Part shown: one piece after another, positions 14,108 through 22,507 of the stretch | Layout: each line of letters begins with the position of its first letter | How positions within the stretch are numbered: the first letter of the stretch is position 1 | NCBI GenBank assembly: GCA_934277435.1 | Contig: CAKQUE010000001.1 | Location: 385,957 to 449,956 of the forward strand | Direction of reading: 5' to 3' | Length of the DNA stretch: 64,000 nt | Origin: an uncultured Alphaproteobacteria bacterium | Lineage (GTDB): Bacteria; Pseudomonadota; Alphaproteobacteria; RF32; CAG-239 | The notes under the pieces: model-generated | The model's database searches: none | Seen by the model: only the letters and a program-made list of their open reading frames with translations | Told to the model about the DNA's origin: nothing | Translations under genes and position numbers: made by a program

Positions 14108-15355
14108 TTACGGCATAACCAGCGGAGAGCCCAAAATATTGGCGTTGAAAGGCAAAAGCTTTTCTCTTAGTCGGTCTACTTCAGGTCTTATGGCAGCAAT
14201 GTTTTCCGGCGTGCTGTCAAACATTTGTATGACCGCTTCAATAAAATATTTGTGGGTTTGTCTTTCTTGAGGAGTGTAATAAGAAAATTGATTTATCATT
14301 TTGTAGGCGTAGCCTTTTTTCAAAAGATTTAAGGTGGTGGTGTAGGCGTTGTTTTGACTGGCGGCGCGAAAAGCTTTTAGCGTTTTGTCGCAGGTGTAGG
14401 CCCAATCATCAAGCCCAAACGCCTGTGTGCCAATAACTTGTTGAAACTCGCTGCGGAGTCCTAGCCATTTTACTTTACGGGCAATGCTTTGGCACGGATT
14501 TACGGCGCTTTTTAAAAATGACACATTTTTATCAATACCGTTTTTTTCGTCCCAATAAGATATTAGTCCGCCGATGGCAATAAAATCTATTTCATGGCGG
14601 CCGCTGCGTTGAAAATTCTGTAATCCGTCCAGAGTATCAATAAAGGCGGAAACATCAGCGGTGGAGAGTGGAGTGTTTTGGTCTGCGTTATAATGGCGAT
14701 AATTGTTCTTTTCTTTTTTTTGCGGAGCATTCAAAGCAAAATCTTGGGCAGGTACTTTTTCTGCCAATCGGTCTAAAAATGCTCTTTTGATGCGGACAGC
14801 CGGTATGTTTGGACGATGGCTTGATGGTTGCGGAAATTCTAGAGAGCCGGTATTTTCGCCAAAAATCTGCGGCATTAGATAGATATACAGTTCTGGTGAA
14901 ACAAATTCTATGTTTGGTATTTGGGATAACTTGGAGGCTATGCGTTTAGGAAATTGGTGTTTTGTACCTTTTATCCCCGGTAAGTCCAAAATTTTTCCCG
15001 ATAAGCCAGGAACTTTGTATAGCATTGGACCGATATACGGATAAAAAACCGGCGGAATACGTTTCAGTTCTTGTAATAATTTTTCTTCATCGGCACTGCT
15101 AATGCGTTTTTCGACGTTTCCAAAATATTGAATATTGGCGGAAAATTCTTTATCAAAAACCGGAGGAATATTCCAGCTGAAATCATAATGCCAATCATAA
15201 TCACTAACGCTTTTTCTATATTCTTTTTCTAGTTGCAGCTTGTTGGGAATATTTTCATCTGCCGGAACATCATAGATATGTGCAAATTCTTTGAGCTGGG
15301 CGAGGCAAGGCACATTTATCAGCATTAGGGCGATTATAAAAAAAACAAAGCGCAT
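14108..15355 (-). CDS. Secreted hypothetical protein
   Basis: N-terminal signal peptide (MRFVFFIIALMLINVPCLA). 415 aa. No recognisable domain. Confidence 0.55.
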   Translation of the reverse strand: MRFVFFIIALMLINVPCLAQLKEFAHIYDVPADENIPNKLQLEKEYRKSVSDYDWHYDFSWNIPPVFDKEFSANIQYFGNVEKRISSADEEKLLQELKRIPPVFYPYIGPMLYKVPGLSGKILDLPGIKGTKHQFPKRIASKLSQIPNIEFVSPELYIYLMPQIFGENTGSLEFPQPSSHRPNIPAVRIKRAFLDRLAEKVPAQDFALNAPQKKEKNNYRHYNADQNTPLSTADVSAFIDTLDGLQNFQRSGRHEIDFIAIGGLISYWDEKNGIDKNVSFLKSAVNPCQSIARKVKWLGLRSEFQQVIGTQAFGLDDWAYTCDKTLKAFRAASQNNAYTTTLNLLKKGYAYKMINQFSYYTPQERQTHKYFIEAVIQMFDSTPENIAAIRPEVDRLREKLLPFNANILGSPLVMP

Positions 15356-16041: not shown

Positions 16042-17184
16042 ATGAAAAAAATTTTTGTTGGGACTTTGGGACTGCTATTGTTGAGCCAAACAGCTAACGC
16101 GATGCAGCCTTCTTTGGGTGAAGATTATTTATCTTTCAAAAATTGGCTGAACAAGGAATATAATCTTGATTACAGTTTAACTTATTCCGTTTTGGGGCAG
16201 CGTACTTCTCCAAGCGGCCGTAACAATGCCGTGCAATCTTATCTGTATCCGTCAATAACATGGACAACGTTTGAAAATGAATACGGCACAGGGGTTTTGA
16301 ATTTTGCGTATAATAGTATTTATTACGGTGGACATTCGGCGGAAGATATTCAAAACCGCAGCGGATTGGTGTCACCGATAAATGATTTTAATGCCTATGA
16401 GCAAAGTTTTGCTGGACTTTATTATACCTATCAATTTCCAAAACAATATAATTGGCTGACTTTGGGTGCAGGTCAATATAATTTGTTTATGTTTGATGGT
16501 ACGGACTATGACGGCAATCAGCAAGTAAATTTTTTGAATTTTTCTTTATCGCAAAACGGCAGCGCCACTTATTCTTCCGCCGGATTAGGCGCCTATTTGC
16601 AAGCGACGCCAGATGATTGGTCGTTTACGGCCGGTTTTCAAGACGCCACCAATATAGAAGCGCCAAGTATTCGGGTTAATCGCCTAAAGAAAAAGCATTT
16701 CACTACGTTTGGGCAAATTGGCTATAATCCGACAATTAAAGGTTTGGGGGCAGGGCAGTATTCGATTATGCTCTATAATCAACCGGCGGTGAAAGAACAG
16801 CCGCAAACGACAAACGGGTGGTCAATCAATATTCAGCAAAGTTTAAACGAAAAATTGGCCGTGTTTGCACGTCTTAACGGAGTTAGCGGACATGTTATTA
16901 CAACAAATCAGACTTATGCAGCTGGTATAGTGTATAATAATCCGTTGGAGCGCAATGAACTAGACCAAATCGGTTTGGCTTATGCTTATAATAAAATTGA
17001 TGAAAAAGCCGTTGGTTCCAAAACATATCATAAAGCCGAACAAATTGTGGAAGCCTATTGGGCTTGGGGAATTTCTAAATGGGCGACAATAACGCCGGAC
17101 TTCCAATTTTATATTAATCCGGCGCTTAATAAAAAGTCAGATTATGGCAGTGTGAGCTCGCTGCGATTGACAGTGTTTTTCTAG
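16042..17184 (+). CDS. Outer-membrane beta-barrel porin (OprB-like candidate)
   Basis: Signal peptide, alternating beta-strand-like pattern, C-terminal ...RLTVFF with terminal Phe. 380 aa. Confidence 0.45.
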   Translation: MKKIFVGTLGLLLLSQTANAMQPSLGEDYLSFKNWLNKEYNLDYSLTYSVLGQRTSPSGRNNAVQSYLYPSITWTTFENEYGTGVLNFAYNSIYYGGHSAEDIQNRSGLVSPINDFNAYEQSFAGLYYTYQFPKQYNWLTLGAGQYNLFMFDGTDYDGNQQVNFLNFSLSQNGSATYSSAGLGAYLQATPDDWSFTAGFQDATNIEAPSIRVNRLKKKHFTTFGQIGYNPTIKGLGAGQYSIMLYNQPAVKEQPQTTNGWSINIQQSLNEKLAVFARLNGVSGHVITTNQTYAAGIVYNNPLERNELDQIGLAYAYNKIDEKAVGSKTYHKAEQIVEAYWAWGISKWATITPDFQFYINPALNKKSDYGSVSSLRLTVFF

Positions 17185-17205
17185 TTGAAATCTTTATAAA
17201 TAAAA

Positions 17206-17243
17206 ATACCGGCTGTTAATTAGTCGGTATTTTCATTTTTTTG
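17206..17243 (+). terminator. Rho-independent terminator
   Basis: ataccggctg...tagtcggtat hairpin followed by a T-run. Confidence 0.6.
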
Positions 17244-17304
17244 CTTTACTTTAGGTAAAAAATAGAGGATTACTAGACCTACAATATTTTTTTGTAATTT
17301 TGAG

Positions 17305-17841
17305 GTGGATATGTTAAAATTTAGACACATGTTATTTGTGTTAGCCTTGGCCGGCTGTACTTCTTCAGAAGTAAAAATGATGCCAGGGATTGTACCGAAC
17401 ACGGCAAAAGAAAAACAAGTGGTGAAAGTTATGCCTAATAATATTATCGGTGAAGTTGAACCAATTTATTTACTGCCGATGAAATCTCCGTTTATGTCAC
17501 GTATTGATACCGGAGCAACTACATCTTCTTTAGATGCCGAAGATATTAAGCCGTTTGAACGTGACGGTCGTAGATGGGTTTCATTTACGGTGGTAAATCG
17601 TGCAACTCAAGAAAAATATACTTTTGAAAAGCCTTTGATTAAAAATGCAAAAATCAAACGAATCGGCGAAAGAGAAAAACGTCCGATGGTAGAAATGGAA
17701 GTGCGTATGGGCAAAGACGTTTTCAGAGCAAACTTTACAATTGCCGAGCGTGAAAAGTTTGAATATCAGACTTTGGTGGGGCGAAATGTGCTTTATGGTC
17801 GTGCCATTGTTGATGTGACATTATCAAACACCCTGAAATAG
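17305..17841 (+). CDS. Retropepsin-like (clan AA) aspartic protease lipoprotein
   Basis: Lipobox LAGC. Catalytic-type motif IDTGATTS. About 178 aa. First gene of the three-gene cassette. Confidence 0.6.
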   Translation: MDMLKFRHMLFVLALAGCTSSEVKMMPGIVPNTAKEKQVVKVMPNNIIGEVEPIYLLPMKSPFMSRIDTGATTSSLDAEDIKPFERDGRRWVSFTVVNRATQEKYTFEKPLIKNAKIKRIGEREKRPMVEMEVRMGKDVFRANFTIAEREKFEYQTLVGRNVLYGRAIVDVTLSNTLK

Positions 17842-17888
17842 GGCAAAAGGCAGAAATTTCTGCCGATTTTTGTTTAAGGATTTGAACT

Positions 17889-19424
17889 ATGCTTAGAAAA
17901 ATTATTTCTGTTCGCGGAATTTTGACCTTGCTGTTGTTATTGTCGGTTGTAGCTGCCGCAGCGGCTACATATTATAAGATTGTTTATTGGGGATTCAGTT
18001 TCCGTCCGCAGGAACGTACAGATGTGTGGACGGTAGATGCTCATGTTTCATTTAAGCCGACAGGTGACCCGATAGAAGTTTCGCTTTCTACACCGCGAAT
18101 CAGCAAAGAATATAAAATTTTGAGCGCCGATGTGGTGGCTCCGGGGTATGAAGTTAATACCGATGAAAAAAATCATCGTGTGATAATGAAGTCTGCCGCT
18201 CGTGTTGTAAAGCAAGATGTTTATTACCGTATTATGATTTATGATAATGAAGATACCAGTGGTAAGGAAGTCAGCGATAGACCTGCTGATGTAAAAATTC
18301 GCTATGATGATGAACAGCAAGAAGAAATGGTGAAAGCCATTTGGACTTTGGCCGAGGCTAAAGATGGCGAAACCAAGGCTCAGCGTTTAATTTCCGTTTT
18401 GAATGAGCAGCCGTTGGCGCCTGAGGTAGATTCATTTTTACCGGTACAGAAAAATCCGCAGATTATGGCGGAAAAAATTATTTTTTTATTGAATGCTAAA
18501 AAAATTCCGGCTCGTGTGGTGCGCGGAGTTAAACTTAGTGAAAATAAAAGAGCCACCGGCGCCGATTTAATGGTTGAAGCCTATGAAGGTTCTAAATGGA
18601 AAATCTATGATATTAATACCGGAAAATCAGGCTTGCCGAAAAGCTTTGTGATTTTTCAACGCGGTGGAAATTCTCTTTTAGACGTTGCCGGCGGCTATGA
18701 TTCCAAAGTTAAGTTTTCGGTTATAAAATCGGTTGTTTCTTCATTTAAAATGGCTGGCAGCCGCGCTAAATATGAAAACAGCCGCTGGTTTGACTTTACG
18801 ATTTATAATTTACCGTCTTTGGAACAGAACACTTTGAAGTGGTTGATGATTTTTCCTTTGGGGATTTTATTGATTGTGCTGATGCGTAACGTTATTGGTA
18901 TTCAAACTATGGGTACGTTTACGCCAATGTTGATTTCTATGTCTTTGGTTAAAACCGGATTTCTCCCAGGGTTGGTGTGTTTTGGGCTGATTATCGGAAT
19001 CGGTTTGTTAATCCGCACCATGCTGACACGCTTGAATTTGTTGCTGGTACCAAGAATTTCATCGGTGGTTATCTGCGTGATTTTAATTATGCAGATGCTG
19101 ACGATTATGGGTTACCAATATAACTTCAGCATTGCTTCTTCAGCCGTGTTTTTCCCGATTATTATTACGGCGTGGATTATTGAACGCGCGTCTATCACTT
19201 GGGAAGAAGAAGGCGTTAAAAACGCAGTTCGTCAGATAGTAAACAGTTTGTTTGTGGCGATTGTAACATATGGTGTTATTAGCAACGAATATATCCGCCA
19301 TATTATGTTTGCTTTCAACGAGTGGAATTTGGTGATTTTGTTTGTGGTAATGCTTTTGGGTACATATACTGGTTATCGTTTAACGGAACTGAAAAGATTC
19401 GCGCCGGTAGCAAGGGGGAAATAA
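17889..19424 (+). CDS. Periplasmic transglutaminase-like domain fused to a 7TM membrane domain
   Basis: Signal/anchor sequence, a soluble region of about 300 aa, then seven predicted hydrophobic helices. Tightly linked to the flanking genes. Confidence 0.6.
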   Translation: MLRKIISVRGILTLLLLLSVVAAAAATYYKIVYWGFSFRPQERTDVWTVDAHVSFKPTGDPIEVSLSTPRISKEYKILSADVVAPGYEVNTDEKNHRVIMKSAARVVKQDVYYRIMIYDNEDTSGKEVSDRPADVKIRYDDEQQEEMVKAIWTLAEAKDGETKAQRLISVLNEQPLAPEVDSFLPVQKNPQIMAEKIIFLLNAKKIPARVVRGVKLSENKRATGADLMVEAYEGSKWKIYDINTGKSGLPKSFVIFQRGGNSLLDVAGGYDSKVKFSVIKSVVSSFKMAGSRAKYENSRWFDFTIYNLPSLEQNTLKWLMIFPLGILLIVLMRNVIGIQTMGTFTPMLISMSLVKTGFLPGLVCFGLIIGIGLLIRTMLTRLNLLLVPRISSVVICVILIMQMLTIMGYQYNFSIASSAVFFPIIITAWIIERASITWEEEGVKNAVRQIVNSLFVAIVTYGVISNEYIRHIMFAFNEWNLVILFVVMLLGTYTGYRLTELKRFAPVARGK

Positions 19425-19425
19425 G

Positions 19426-20376
19426 ATGTTTGATTTTCTCAAAGGTTTTGTATCGCCACAAAAATTGCGTCAAGCGGGCGTGTTGGGTATGAACGCACGC
19501 AACTATAATATTATTGCCAAATTTAACAAGCGTTCGCTTTATCCGCTGGTTGATGACAAGGTGCAGACTAAAAAGCTGGCAAACAGCATTGATATTAATA
19601 CTCCGCATATGATTGGTATTGTAGAACACCAATATGAAGTTAAAGACCTGCTGCAGCTGATTGAGGGACAGAGCGAGTTTGTGATAAAACCGGCTCATGG
19701 CAGTGAGGGTAAAGGTGTGCTGGTGGTGGCGCATTATGAAAACGGTATATTTACCACGCCGTCTGGAAAAGTATTGACCTTTAAAGAAGTGTATCAGCAT
19801 GTTTCAAATATTTTGAGCGGATTATATAGCTTGGGCGGACAATATGACGTGGCGCTGATTGAAGAACTGGTGCATTTTACCGATGTATTTAAAAACTTTA
19901 GTTACCAAGGGATTCCTGACGTACGCCTGATTGTTTATAAAGGCTATCCGGCTTTGGCAATGACCAGACTGGCAACCAAAGAATCTGCCGGCCGTGCTAA
20001 TTTGCACCAAGGAGCTGTCGGAGTCGGTTTGTCTATCAAAACCGGCAAAGCTGTGCAAGCCGTTAGCCACAATCTGCCGATTGCTTTACATCCCGATACC
20101 GGCGCCGATTTAATGCAGCTGCAAGTACCGCTATGGAAAGAACATCTGTTGATTGGAGCACAGGCGTATGAAATGACCGGACTTGGTTACTTGGGGGCGG
20201 ATATCGTTTTAGACCGCGACCGCGGACCGATGATGCTGGAATTAAACGCGCGTCCGGGGCTTTCTGTCCAGATTGCTAACGGTATTGGACTGCAGCCGAT
20301 TTTGCAAAAAATAGAAGAAACTTATCCAAAAGATTTGACGCCGCAAGAAAGAGTTGAGTTTGTCTTGAATAATTAA
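19426..20376 (+). CDS. RimK-related ATP-grasp alpha-L-glutamate-ligase-like protein
   Basis: ATP-grasp motifs (FVIKPAHGSEGKGVLV, LELNARPG). Start 2 nt after the upstream stop. Confidence 0.7.
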   Translation: MFDFLKGFVSPQKLRQAGVLGMNARNYNIIAKFNKRSLYPLVDDKVQTKKLANSIDINTPHMIGIVEHQYEVKDLLQLIEGQSEFVIKPAHGSEGKGVLVVAHYENGIFTTPSGKVLTFKEVYQHVSNILSGLYSLGGQYDVALIEELVHFTDVFKNFSYQGIPDVRLIVYKGYPALAMTRLATKESAGRANLHQGAVGVGLSIKTGKAVQAVSHNLPIALHPDTGADLMQLQVPLWKEHLLIGAQAYEMTGLGYLGADIVLDRDRGPMMLELNARPGLSVQIANGIGLQPILQKIEETYPKDLTPQERVEFVLNN

Positions 20377-20421: not shown

Positions 20422-21027
20422 ATGACTGATTTATTAGGTAAATCTGATACAAAACATATTGAAAAACCAAACACCAAGCATTTGGAAAATAAAGAAACAA
20501 AAAAGCTGGGAATGAGCGATACTCGTGCAAAGAAAATTAAACATTCTTACAATGTTAAAGATGCAGAAAACGCGTTGCTTTTGAAAACTAAAAACGGGGA
20601 CATCGTTATTGAAATGTTTCCAAATGACGCTCCAAACCATGTTGCTCGTATAAAAGAACTTGTGCGTGACGGTTTTTATAACGGCTTAAAATTTCACCGT
20701 GTAATAGATGGTTTTATGGCGCAAACCGGAGATCCGCGCGGTAATGGTACCGGTGGCAGCGGTAAAAAGCTGAAAGCCGAGTTTAACCGCAATCGTCATA
20801 CTCGCGGCACGGTTTCTATGGCGCGGGCGATGGATCCGGACTCTGCTGATAGCCAATTCTTTATCTGTTTTGCTGATTGTCCATGGCTTGATGGCCAATA
20901 CACCATCTGGGGACAGGTGACTTCCGGTATGGAATATGTTGACCAAATTAAGCGAGGTTCCGGTTCAAACGGAATGGTTGCCGAACCGGATGTGATTGTG
21001 TCTATGTCTGTCATCGCAGATATATAG
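20422..21027 (+). CDS. ppiB: Cyclophilin-type peptidyl-prolyl cis-trans isomerase
   Basis: FHRVIDGFMAQTGDP and WLDGQYTIWGQV motifs. N-terminal basic extension. Confidence 0.9.
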   Translation: MTDLLGKSDTKHIEKPNTKHLENKETKKLGMSDTRAKKIKHSYNVKDAENALLLKTKNGDIVIEMFPNDAPNHVARIKELVRDGFYNGLKFHRVIDGFMAQTGDPRGNGTGGSGKKLKAEFNRNRHTRGTVSMARAMDPDSADSQFFICFADCPWLDGQYTIWGQVTSGMEYVDQIKRGSGSNGMVAEPDVIVSMSVIADI

Positions 21028-21400
21028 GGGAACTCGTCTAATGGTCTACTACTTTTAACTTTTTGTGCTTGTGTACCTCATTGTACACGGCGCAAAAAAG
21101 TTAATGCGTATTAGCCTCATTATCCAAGTCCCTGCGAGTTTGTGCCGGTTGCAGCAATAAGCAGCCGGTTTTTCTTATGTACTAGTTTGTACACTGCGCA
21201 AAAATCTTACTTCGCATTGAGCTCATTATCCGAGTTTCTTAAGAGCAAGAGCAATGCGAATAACGGCACATCTAAAGGCAATTTACGTTCGTTCAGAAAA
21301 TTCATGTACTTCTATGTACACTAGGATTTTCTTCAGAACTAGAGTTGCCTTTATCTGTACCATTATTCGCATTGCTTTATATGATTGTCACTGTTTTGTT
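21028..21400. repeat. Array A of the intergenic repeat family (about 3 units)
   Basis: Each unit has TGTAC-N6-TGTACA, then GCGCAAAAA..., then the hairpin GCCGGTTGC-loop-GCAGCCGG plus a T-run. Near-identical to 32190..32470. It starts with GGAACTCGTCTA directly after the ppiB stop. Confidence 0.85.
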
Positions 21401-21456
21401 TTTAGTTTGTGCCGATTGCAATAAAAATCTTAAAGAATGTTTTTTGTACAAAATTC

Positions 21457-21485
21457 TTGATATTTGGCAAAAACGTTATATAATC
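21457..21485 (+). promoter_or_regulatory. Sigma70-like promoter (TTGATA-16-TATAAT)
   Basis: Near-consensus hexamers upstream of the 21527 ORF. Confidence 0.5.
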
Positions 21486-21526
21486 ACTACATCATTTATA
21501 TTATTCATTTTTTAAATTATTATTTT

Positions 21527-22243
21527 ATGGAACATGTTAATCATTTTGCCGAGACTAATGCCGATGACAAATTAAAATCTATGATTTTTGATTGTATATC
21601 TGGTACATCGCTTGGAGTTTATGATGCCGAAAAGGTTATTTTACAGCTGCCGATTTGTGCCAGAGCTCCGCTTTTGGCCTTGTATTTTATGAGAATACGA
21701 GGAATTGAGAAGGATTGTACAGATAAACATCTTCGTTTTGTGCTGCTGTTGTCTTTGTTTCAGGTCGCCGTGCGGATTTTTGAACGCCATGTGCTTTACG
21801 GTACTTCAAATCGCTTTATTGGAACTGACCGTTTTGATAACAAAAATGTGAAACAGCTTATTACAAATTTGGGAATAAGACAGCAAACCAACACTTTTGA
21901 GCTGGATTCGGTTATTGACAACAATCCTTATTACAAAGAGGTTTTGTATGAAGTGAAGCATAATAATGCTCTCCTCAACTGCAATGTAAAAGCGACAATA
22001 TCTGATTATTTTGTAAAGAAAGTTATGCAATTTGTTGCTTTGTATGCTCAGGATGTGCGAACTTTTTATTCTATGGATGTGCAAACTTTTTATGTGCGTA
22101 CTAATCCATTGGTTTGCGATGAACAATTGTATAAACAATCTTGGATAAAATTCAAGCTACTGACTGTTAAAAGCTTGTTTTTCGTGAATGATTTGAGTGA
22201 AGAAGAGTTTGCTGAATTTTTTGAAAATTACAGCTTGCGTTAA
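21527..22243 (+). CDS. Hypothetical protein
   Basis: ORF with an ATG start at 21527. The 21464 start offered by the ORF track is a TTG. No recognised family. Confidence 0.5.
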   Translation: MEHVNHFAETNADDKLKSMIFDCISGTSLGVYDAEKVILQLPICARAPLLALYFMRIRGIEKDCTDKHLRFVLLLSLFQVAVRIFERHVLYGTSNRFIGTDRFDNKNVKQLITNLGIRQQTNTFELDSVIDNNPYYKEVLYEVKHNNALLNCNVKATISDYFVKKVMQFVALYAQDVRTFYSMDVQTFYVRTNPLVCDEQLYKQSWIKFKLLTVKSLFFVNDLSEEEFAEFFENYSLR

Positions 22244-22507
22244 AAATAAATCCCTTGTTTCTAAAATATAGAAACTGGGGATTTAATTTTTTTAGAATCC
22301 GAAAAATTAATAAAACTTTACATTGTGAATTATTTGAAAAAAAATTTTATAAGGCTATCTGATTGTTTTTTCATTGGCTTTTATTTTTATCTATATATTT
22401 TGTACGAACAAAAGTAGAACAGTTAATAAAATACTAAAAAATCCCATTGAAACCCATAAATTACCATGATATACCATAAATAAGAATTAACCCGAAAGGA
22501 ATCTGAC

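Follow-up and report, generated by a model that had tools for sequence, protein, structure and literature searches.

The rloABC operon of Pseudomonas aeruginosa very probably has a chromosomal ortholog in an uncultured gut alphaproteobacterium, represented here by a stretch of 64,000 nucleotides (nt) referred to as the window (assembly GCA_934277435.1, contig CAKQUE010000001.1, positions 385,957 to 449,956). The locus lies at positions 17305..20376 of the window and comprises three genes encoding a retropepsin-like protease, a membrane protein with a transglutaminase-like domain and an ATP-grasp protein. This gene neighborhood was reportedly first described by Iyer et al. in 2009. In P. aeruginosa, the genes PA1766-PA1768 were hit in earlier screens as an operon of unknown function (PMC7314104), and the operon was named rloABC by Lormand et al. 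(2025, mBio; PMC12239564). The corresponding loci are PA1768-PA1767-PA1766 in strain PAO1, with rloB and rloC listed as PA14_41710 and PA14_41730 (PMC12239564). The study by Iyer et al. (2009) is cited in this work as well as in PMC12096838.

RloA and its paralogs RloA2 and RloA3 are retropepsin-like proteases that are secreted, form dimers and possess a positively charged channel. Cleavage by RloA in vitro requires at least 8 consecutive glutamates, and residues lining the basic channel are needed in vivo (PMC12239564). A mutant lacking all three proteases does not grow at low osmolarity and exhibits defects in biofilm formation, beta-lactam resistance and cell shape, all of which are suppressed by deletion of rloB or rloC (PMC12239564). 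In this organism, the rlo system has effects on beta-lactam resistance and biofilm formation as well as on the tolerance of osmotic stress. The periplasmic proteome of Pseudomonas is devoid of any polyglutamate stretch, rimB and rloA do not interact genetically in this genus, and glutamate-polyglutamate homeostasis has already been speculated on by the authors (PMC12239564). An earlier interpretation of the window made without database searches (the sequence-only reading) had stated that the trio has no assigned function, which is out of date, as the operon has a name and published phenotypes and NCBIfam contains models for RloA and RloB.

A Conserved Three-Gene Unit

The trio consists of three open reading frames (ORFs) on the + strand, listed at 17305..17841, 17889..19424 and 19426..20376 and encoding 178 amino acids (aa; counted from a GTG at 17305), 511 aa and 316 aa, respectively. 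For the first gene, the ATG at 17311 appears the likelier start and is preferred to the GTG, giving a product of 176 aa; a Shine-Dalgarno-like GAGGTG is located at 17300-17305, seven bases ahead of this ATG. The family assignments proposed from the sequence were confirmed for all three proteins by Pfam and NCBIfam profile searches (PF05618; PF14400 and PF14402; PF14397/TIGR02291). The genes and their main features are:

17311..17841, + strand: rloA homolog, retropepsin-like aspartic peptidase of 176 aa (PF05618; DTGA; PDB relatives 9g58, 9g59 and 2pma)
17311..17358, + strand: lipoprotein signal peptide, MLKFRHMLFVLALAG followed by C, with lipobox LAGC, read directly from the sequence
17506..17517, + strand: catalytic DTGA motif, Asp66 in the 176-aa numbering (aa 66-69), aligned with the catalytic Asp of 9g58 and 9g59
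17889..19424, + strand: rloB homolog of 511 aa, with an N-terminal transmembrane (TM) helix, a periplasmic inactive transglutaminase-like domain and a C-terminal seven-transmembrane (7TM) domain (PF14400; PF14402; AlphaFold2 model)
17991..18815, + strand: periplasmic transglutaminase-like domain of RloB, approximately aa 35-309, without cysteine
18816..19397, + strand: 7TM membrane domain of RloB, approximately aa 310-503, the best-conserved part of the family (invariant residues; model helices)
19426..20376, + strand: rloC homolog, RimK-related ATP-grasp "alpha-L-glutamate ligase-like" protein of 316 aa (PF14397; TIGR02291)

The genes are indeed as tightly packed as had been noticed before; the gap of 47 nt between rloA and rloB was given correctly, and the one between rloB and rloC measures 1 nt instead of 2 nt. 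A search of the cassette for a carrier or acceptor whose C-terminus is a Glu tail found no such gene; the 47- and 1-nt gaps leave no space for one, and no protein of the trio ends in Glu.

When an RloB alignment was used to scan GTDB, with each species represented by a single genome, 303 confirmed relatives were obtained, the best 80 of which were examined. Nearly all of these 80 are labeled as Alphaproteobacteria or unclassified proteobacteria, with a few records carrying other names, and their isolate or contig names indicate human gut, rumen, other animal gut or fecal metagenomes. RloB is 58-98% identical in these loci, the upper value being that of the closest relative, UMGS1578. The genes rloB and rloC are adjacent in 80/80 loci, with a median gap of 1 nt across related loci, and rloA lies ahead of them in 78, the contigs of the remaining two stopping at rloB. 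Beyond these loci, two others (L081 and L082) carry an intact trio amid entirely different flanking genes, and the same A-B-C order is present in Legionella adelaidensis (L083) and Aeromonas caviae (L084), whose copies are 31-35% (RloA), 32-33% (RloB) and 48-51% (RloC) identical to the window proteins. In Legionella, the genes are annotated, in order, as "RimK/LysX family protein," "inactive transglutaminase family protein" and "alpha-L-glutamate ligase-like protein." As the gene order holds while the flanking genes change and across proteobacterial classes, the trio is a conserved unit and its adjacency is not due to chance. The recurrence of this neighborhood in bacteria, which the sequence-only reading had stated, is thereby borne out by co-occurrence.

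Several of these loci display features of their own. In L083 (3429..9000), the L. adelaidensis trio is complete and lies on the 54-kb plasmid 5, with overlapping gene ends; the label of its protease gene looks like a mis-annotation, and two genes for C1-family cysteine peptidases lie directly downstream on the opposite strand. The A. caviae record (NZ_AP026896.1), a "plasmid" in PLSDB, spans 4.94 Mb with only 18 annotated features and almost certainly represents a misfiled chromosome. In L081 (2805..5167) and L082 (1682..4044), from a more distant alphaproteobacterial relative with RloB 60% identical, the region just upstream of rloA holds divergently transcribed genes for a PhoQ-like histidine kinase, an OmpR-type regulator and a BOF-domain protein. 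The kinase and regulator genes bring to mind the published ties of rlo genes to the VxrAB and CreBC two-component systems.

Features of the Three Proteins

The window RloA matches PF05618 with an E-value of 2.4e-31. The NCBIfam models RloA3, RloA2, RimB and RloA1 all match as well, each under its curated cut-off (103.9 versus 210 bits for RloA3 and 67.8 versus 200 bits for RimB). As predicted earlier, the protein is a lipoprotein with a DTGA protease motif. The motif is present in 78/78 RloA orthologs, and a strict lipobox pattern is found in 57 of them; 20 of the remaining 21 have a hydrophobic N-terminus and a Cys in the N-terminal stretch, and the last one (L036) is truncated by the start of its contig. 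Because of its lipobox, the window RloA is predicted to be membrane-anchored, not simply secreted. A secretion signal, the feature which separates RloA from the cytoplasmic RimB, can thus be read from its sequence.

Across the active site, the window RloA aligns with the RloA structures of Lormand et al. (9g58 and 9g59) and with Legionella Lpg0085 (2pma). With an offset of +20, the 9g58 chain displays exactly the residue types published as polyglutamate contacts, namely K46, D48, R92, K95, K97, K109, R114 and R137, and their counterparts in the window protein are, in that order, R64, D66, K111, K114, K116, K123, R124 and R147. Charge is therefore conserved at the seven basic channel positions and at the catalytic Asp. 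With its basic channel preserved, the window RloA is likewise expected to act on an acidic substrate.

RloB matches PF14400 at aa 29-176 (1e-24) and PF14402 at aa 262-507 (4e-83), and the NCBIfam model "osmotic stress tolerance membrane protein RloB" matches at 4e-77, under its cut-off (260 versus 900 bits). In the AlphaFold2 model of RloB (predicted local distance difference test, pLDDT, of 73), an N-terminal TM helix precedes a mixed alpha/beta domain, and a helical bundle makes up the C-terminus. As cysteine is lacking from the whole region that separates the N-terminal helix from the membrane domain, the periplasmic domain cannot be a thiol transglutaminase or protease. In a family alignment of 66 sequences with 24-53% identity, the invariant residues G337, G342, F344, L348, R376, L384, R389, P423, E432, Y493, G495, R503 and F504 all fall in the 7TM domain, where the charged residues R333, R433, E440, E478 and R497 are nearly invariant. 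Just W47, P69 and W237 are nearly invariant in the periplasmic domain, the rest of which diverges fast. Since every family-wide invariant residue lies in the membrane domain, this domain is regarded as the functional core of RloB. The protein has no run of at least 8 Glu, and its sole acidic cluster is a conserved WEEEG loop (residues 438-442). The RloB family is of modest size (1663 clusters at 50% identity, E <= 1e-3), and a profile search with RloB against PDB sequences returned no match.

RloC matches PF14397 (3.8e-81) and TIGR02291 (417.6 bits, above the cut-off of 314.2). It contains no hydrophobic segment and is a cytoplasmic ATP-grasp protein. Its AlphaFold2 model is confident (pLDDT of 89.7) and shows an ATP-grasp fold with RimK, LysX and ArgX as best matches, not Ddl or Mur ligases. 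About 200 residues of the model align, while the first 55 or so are predicted to be helical and not to form a Rossmann-like pre-ATP-grasp domain; the sequence alignment of RloC with RimK begins at RimK residue 98. Residues K88, D259, E272 and N274 align with ATP-grasp core residues of RimK and are invariant in 58 homologs. RloC scores far under the cut-offs of the RimK family (41.8 versus 143.4 bits for TIGR00768 and 25.6 versus 331 bits for NF007764).

Comparison With Described Systems

The window trio and the rloABC operon of P. aeruginosa share the three Pfam architectures, gene order and strand. Both encode a secreted protease with DTGA motif and basic channel, a Cys-less transglutaminase-like domain fused to a 7TM domain, and an ATP-grasp protein of the TIGR02291 family. 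They differ in their hosts, as the window derives from an alphaproteobacterium whereas PMC12239564 treats Gammaproteobacteria and does not mention Alphaproteobacteria. Furthermore, the window RloA has a lipobox, and the lineage of the window has a cyclophilin gene after rloC and a small hairpin between rloA and rloB. The sequences are also distant, with RloA and RloB under the NCBIfam cut-offs and RloB approximately 32-33% identical to gammaproteobacterial copies. These NCBIfam models were tuned for proteins closely related to those of Pseudomonas. The window RloA and RloB are family members, not near-identical equivalogs.

The RimABK system, which mediates polyglutamylation of ribosomal protein S6, differs in several respects. 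The window protease is an exported lipoprotein in contrast to the cytoplasmic RimB, and there is no Rim counterpart of the 7TM/transglutaminase-like protein, whose gene separates the protease and ligase genes in the window. In addition, RloC scores far under the RimK cut-offs and has a helical N-terminus, and RloA scores under the RimB cut-off. Compared with the LysX/ArgX-LysW ligases, the window contains neither a LysW-like carrier gene nor a lysine or arginine biosynthesis context, and LysX and ArgX, unlike RloC, have no membrane or protease partners. A known defense system was ruled out as well, PADLOC having returned zero matches for the three trio proteins and for orf259, the product of an ORF downstream of the trio.

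Overall, the locus is correctly annotated as a known operon that has been characterized in part, of which the window holds an ordinary new copy with minor variations. New here are the alphaproteobacterial host, the lipoprotein nature of RloA and the lineage-specific link to a cyclophilin gene. The known range of the operon now includes a large clade of uncultured Alphaproteobacteria from gut and rumen (matches in 303 species-level genomes; trio kept in the 80 examined). Of possible use for work on the mechanism are the conservation of the polyglutamate-contact residues of RloA across classes, the confinement of the RloB invariants to the membrane domain, and the lack of a canonical pre-ATP-grasp domain in RloC.

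Proposed Mechanism and Alternative Explanations

The identity of the trio as rloABC, together with a mechanism centered on a glutamate product, is taken as the best explanation of the locus, at a probability of roughly 0.55. Considered by itself, the mechanism is tentative and its chances are rated somewhat below even. Based on the present results and the published epistasis, we infer that RloC builds a glutamate-rich product, which RloB transfers or presents and RloA trims. As an ATP-grasp amino-acid ligase of the RimK/LysX/ArgX type in the cytoplasm, RloC would consume ATP in assembling its putative product, an acidic peptide or tail rich in glutamate. It would probably be docked on the cytoplasmic face of RloB, since the usual N-terminal acceptor-binding domain is missing from RloC. 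The arginine-rich conserved 7TM domain of RloB may then pass or present the product across the inner membrane in a presumed transport role, and the catalytically dead transglutaminase-like domain on the periplasmic side may hold it. RloA, predicted to act as a dimeric periplasmic lipoprotein with a basic substrate channel, would cut the polyglutamate product and keep its level in check; without RloA, the product of RloB and RloC would build up and harm the envelope. The tailor-and-trim modification system suggested by the sequence-only reading agrees with the published genetics and with the in vitro specificity of the protease, and stays a proposal. It seems unlikely, if conceivable, that RloC and RloB make and export a fixed anion resembling poly-alpha-glutamate, a peptide counterpart of osmoregulated periplasmic glucans whose length and amount are tuned by RloA, with the tightly linked cyclophilin joining the system as its fourth member in this lineage. 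Such a reading would go little further than the speculation already published for Pseudomonas on glutamate-polyglutamate homeostasis.

Unrestrained signaling would explain equally well why deletion of rloB or rloC suppresses the loss of rloA. In such a scheme, which involves no export, RloB would be a transmembrane sensor or scaffold whose periplasmic pseudo-enzyme domain binds an envelope ligand. RloB would control the glutamylation of a cytoplasmic target by RloC, comparable to RimK-RpsF, and RloA would end the signal by acting in the periplasm on RloB or the ligand. A catalytically dead, fast-diverging periplasmic domain is a pattern that suits ligand binding, and in the related Rim system, the protease and an EAL protein regulate RimK and do not only degrade its product (PMC11957791; PMC12239564). 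However, RloA requires at least 8 Glu in vitro and its basic channel residues in vivo, RloB has no such run, and there is no polyglutamate stretch in the periplasmic proteome of Pseudomonas. We consider a sensor or regulator of this kind improbable; the presence in the periplasm of a protease specific for polyglutamate is best understood if some glutamylated product arrives there. A role in the modification of cell-wall precursors is doubtful to a similar degree. Here, RloC would add one or several amino acids to peptidoglycan or another lipid-linked envelope precursor, RloB would handle the lipid-linked intermediate and RloA would trim the modification in the periplasm. The affinity of RloC to RimK, LysX and ArgX rather than to Ddl or Mur ligases speaks against this, the preference of RloA for long Glu runs is ill-suited to a short stem-peptide substrate, and the link to the division cluster is weak, with mraZ found within the fetched stretch in just 7/80 loci, for which the fetched flanks were short. 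Finally, the ordinary housekeeping genes on either side could suggest that the three genes are mere neighbors in a core region and not a functional unit. This notion is refuted by the synteny analysis and retains next to no probability, as order and strand are kept in 78/80 species, the trio endures with changed flanks and across proteobacterial classes, the genes are separated by 1 nt or overlap, and epistasis between them has been published.

Transcription Signals

Two hairpins delimit or interrupt the cassette:

17203..17243, + strand: terminator-like hairpin with T-run (13-pair stem at 17203..17233, then CATTTTTTTG), closing the upstream porin gene and marking the 5' edge of the cassette
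17849..17874, + strand: short hairpin GGCAGAAATTTCTGCC with T-run, between rloA and rloB

The first corresponds to a terminator previously placed at 17206..17243; hairpin and T-run are present, with the stem positioned as listed. The second is retained with differing stem sequences in the near relatives L001-L009, L011 and L015 and is absent from more distant loci, in which the gap between rloA and rloB measures just 7-20 nt. Judging from its sequence, it is possibly a partial internal terminator or attenuator; by dampening read-through, it may raise production of the protease above that of RloB and RloC. A scan for sigma-70 promoters found 14 sites as opposed to 13.6 expected from shuffled sequence, and no promoter is claimed since such sites are no commoner than in shuffled sequence. 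At a permissive E-value, Rfam yielded two chance matches between 15000 and 23000 (U4 and mir-1829, both eukaryotic), both under their gathering scores, and therefore no riboswitch or leader is assigned in this region. Two antisense ORFs (18048..18320 and 19315..19800) were dismissed as spurious since they lie inside well-supported genes.

Flanking Genes

The setting of the trio is a core chromosomal context of an alphaproteobacterium, with genes for an OprB/AaxA-like porin, a GcrA homolog and a cyclophilin peptidyl-prolyl isomerase (PPIase) nearby and mraZ-rsmH-ftsL-ftsI and spoT/rpoZ further off. The position in a core region between a porin gene and ppiB, as originally described, is confirmed by the two immediate neighbors:

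16042..17184: OprB-family porin, closest to the chlamydial AaxA porin model (2.7e-81, under cut-off)
20422..21027, + strand: cyclophilin PPIase (ppiB), a lineage-specific downstream neighbor outside the core trio (PF00160, 1.4e-46, match from aa 54)

A porin homolog is present in 66/80 related loci, mostly upstream of rloA and at variable distance; in the window, the porin gene is parted from rloA by the terminator-like hairpin. The cyclophilin carries a Lys-rich, repeat-like N-terminal extension of approximately 50 aa (..ETKNL.K..TKNL..) which is conserved in distant gut alphaproteobacterial loci. Its gene lies less than 150 nt from rloC (about 45 nt downstream) in 68/74 loci and is not beside the trio in L081-L084. 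No terminator-like site was found in the interval between rloC and the cyclophilin gene, the next one being located at 21144..21169. For this lineage alone, joint transcription of the cyclophilin gene with rloABC is possible.

Further downstream, a 259-aa ORF (21464..22243) is situated in a region of 27-36% GC within a low-GC stretch (21000..22500). Pfam, NCBIfam and PADLOC yielded no match for it, nor did tblastn searches of the 80 related loci. The ORF appears to be a strain-specific insertion separating ppiB from mraZ. On the other side of the trio, an ORF of 415 aa without Pfam or NCBIfam match (14108..15355, - strand) lies between rpoZ and gcrA and starts with an N-terminal hydrophobic signal-like segment.

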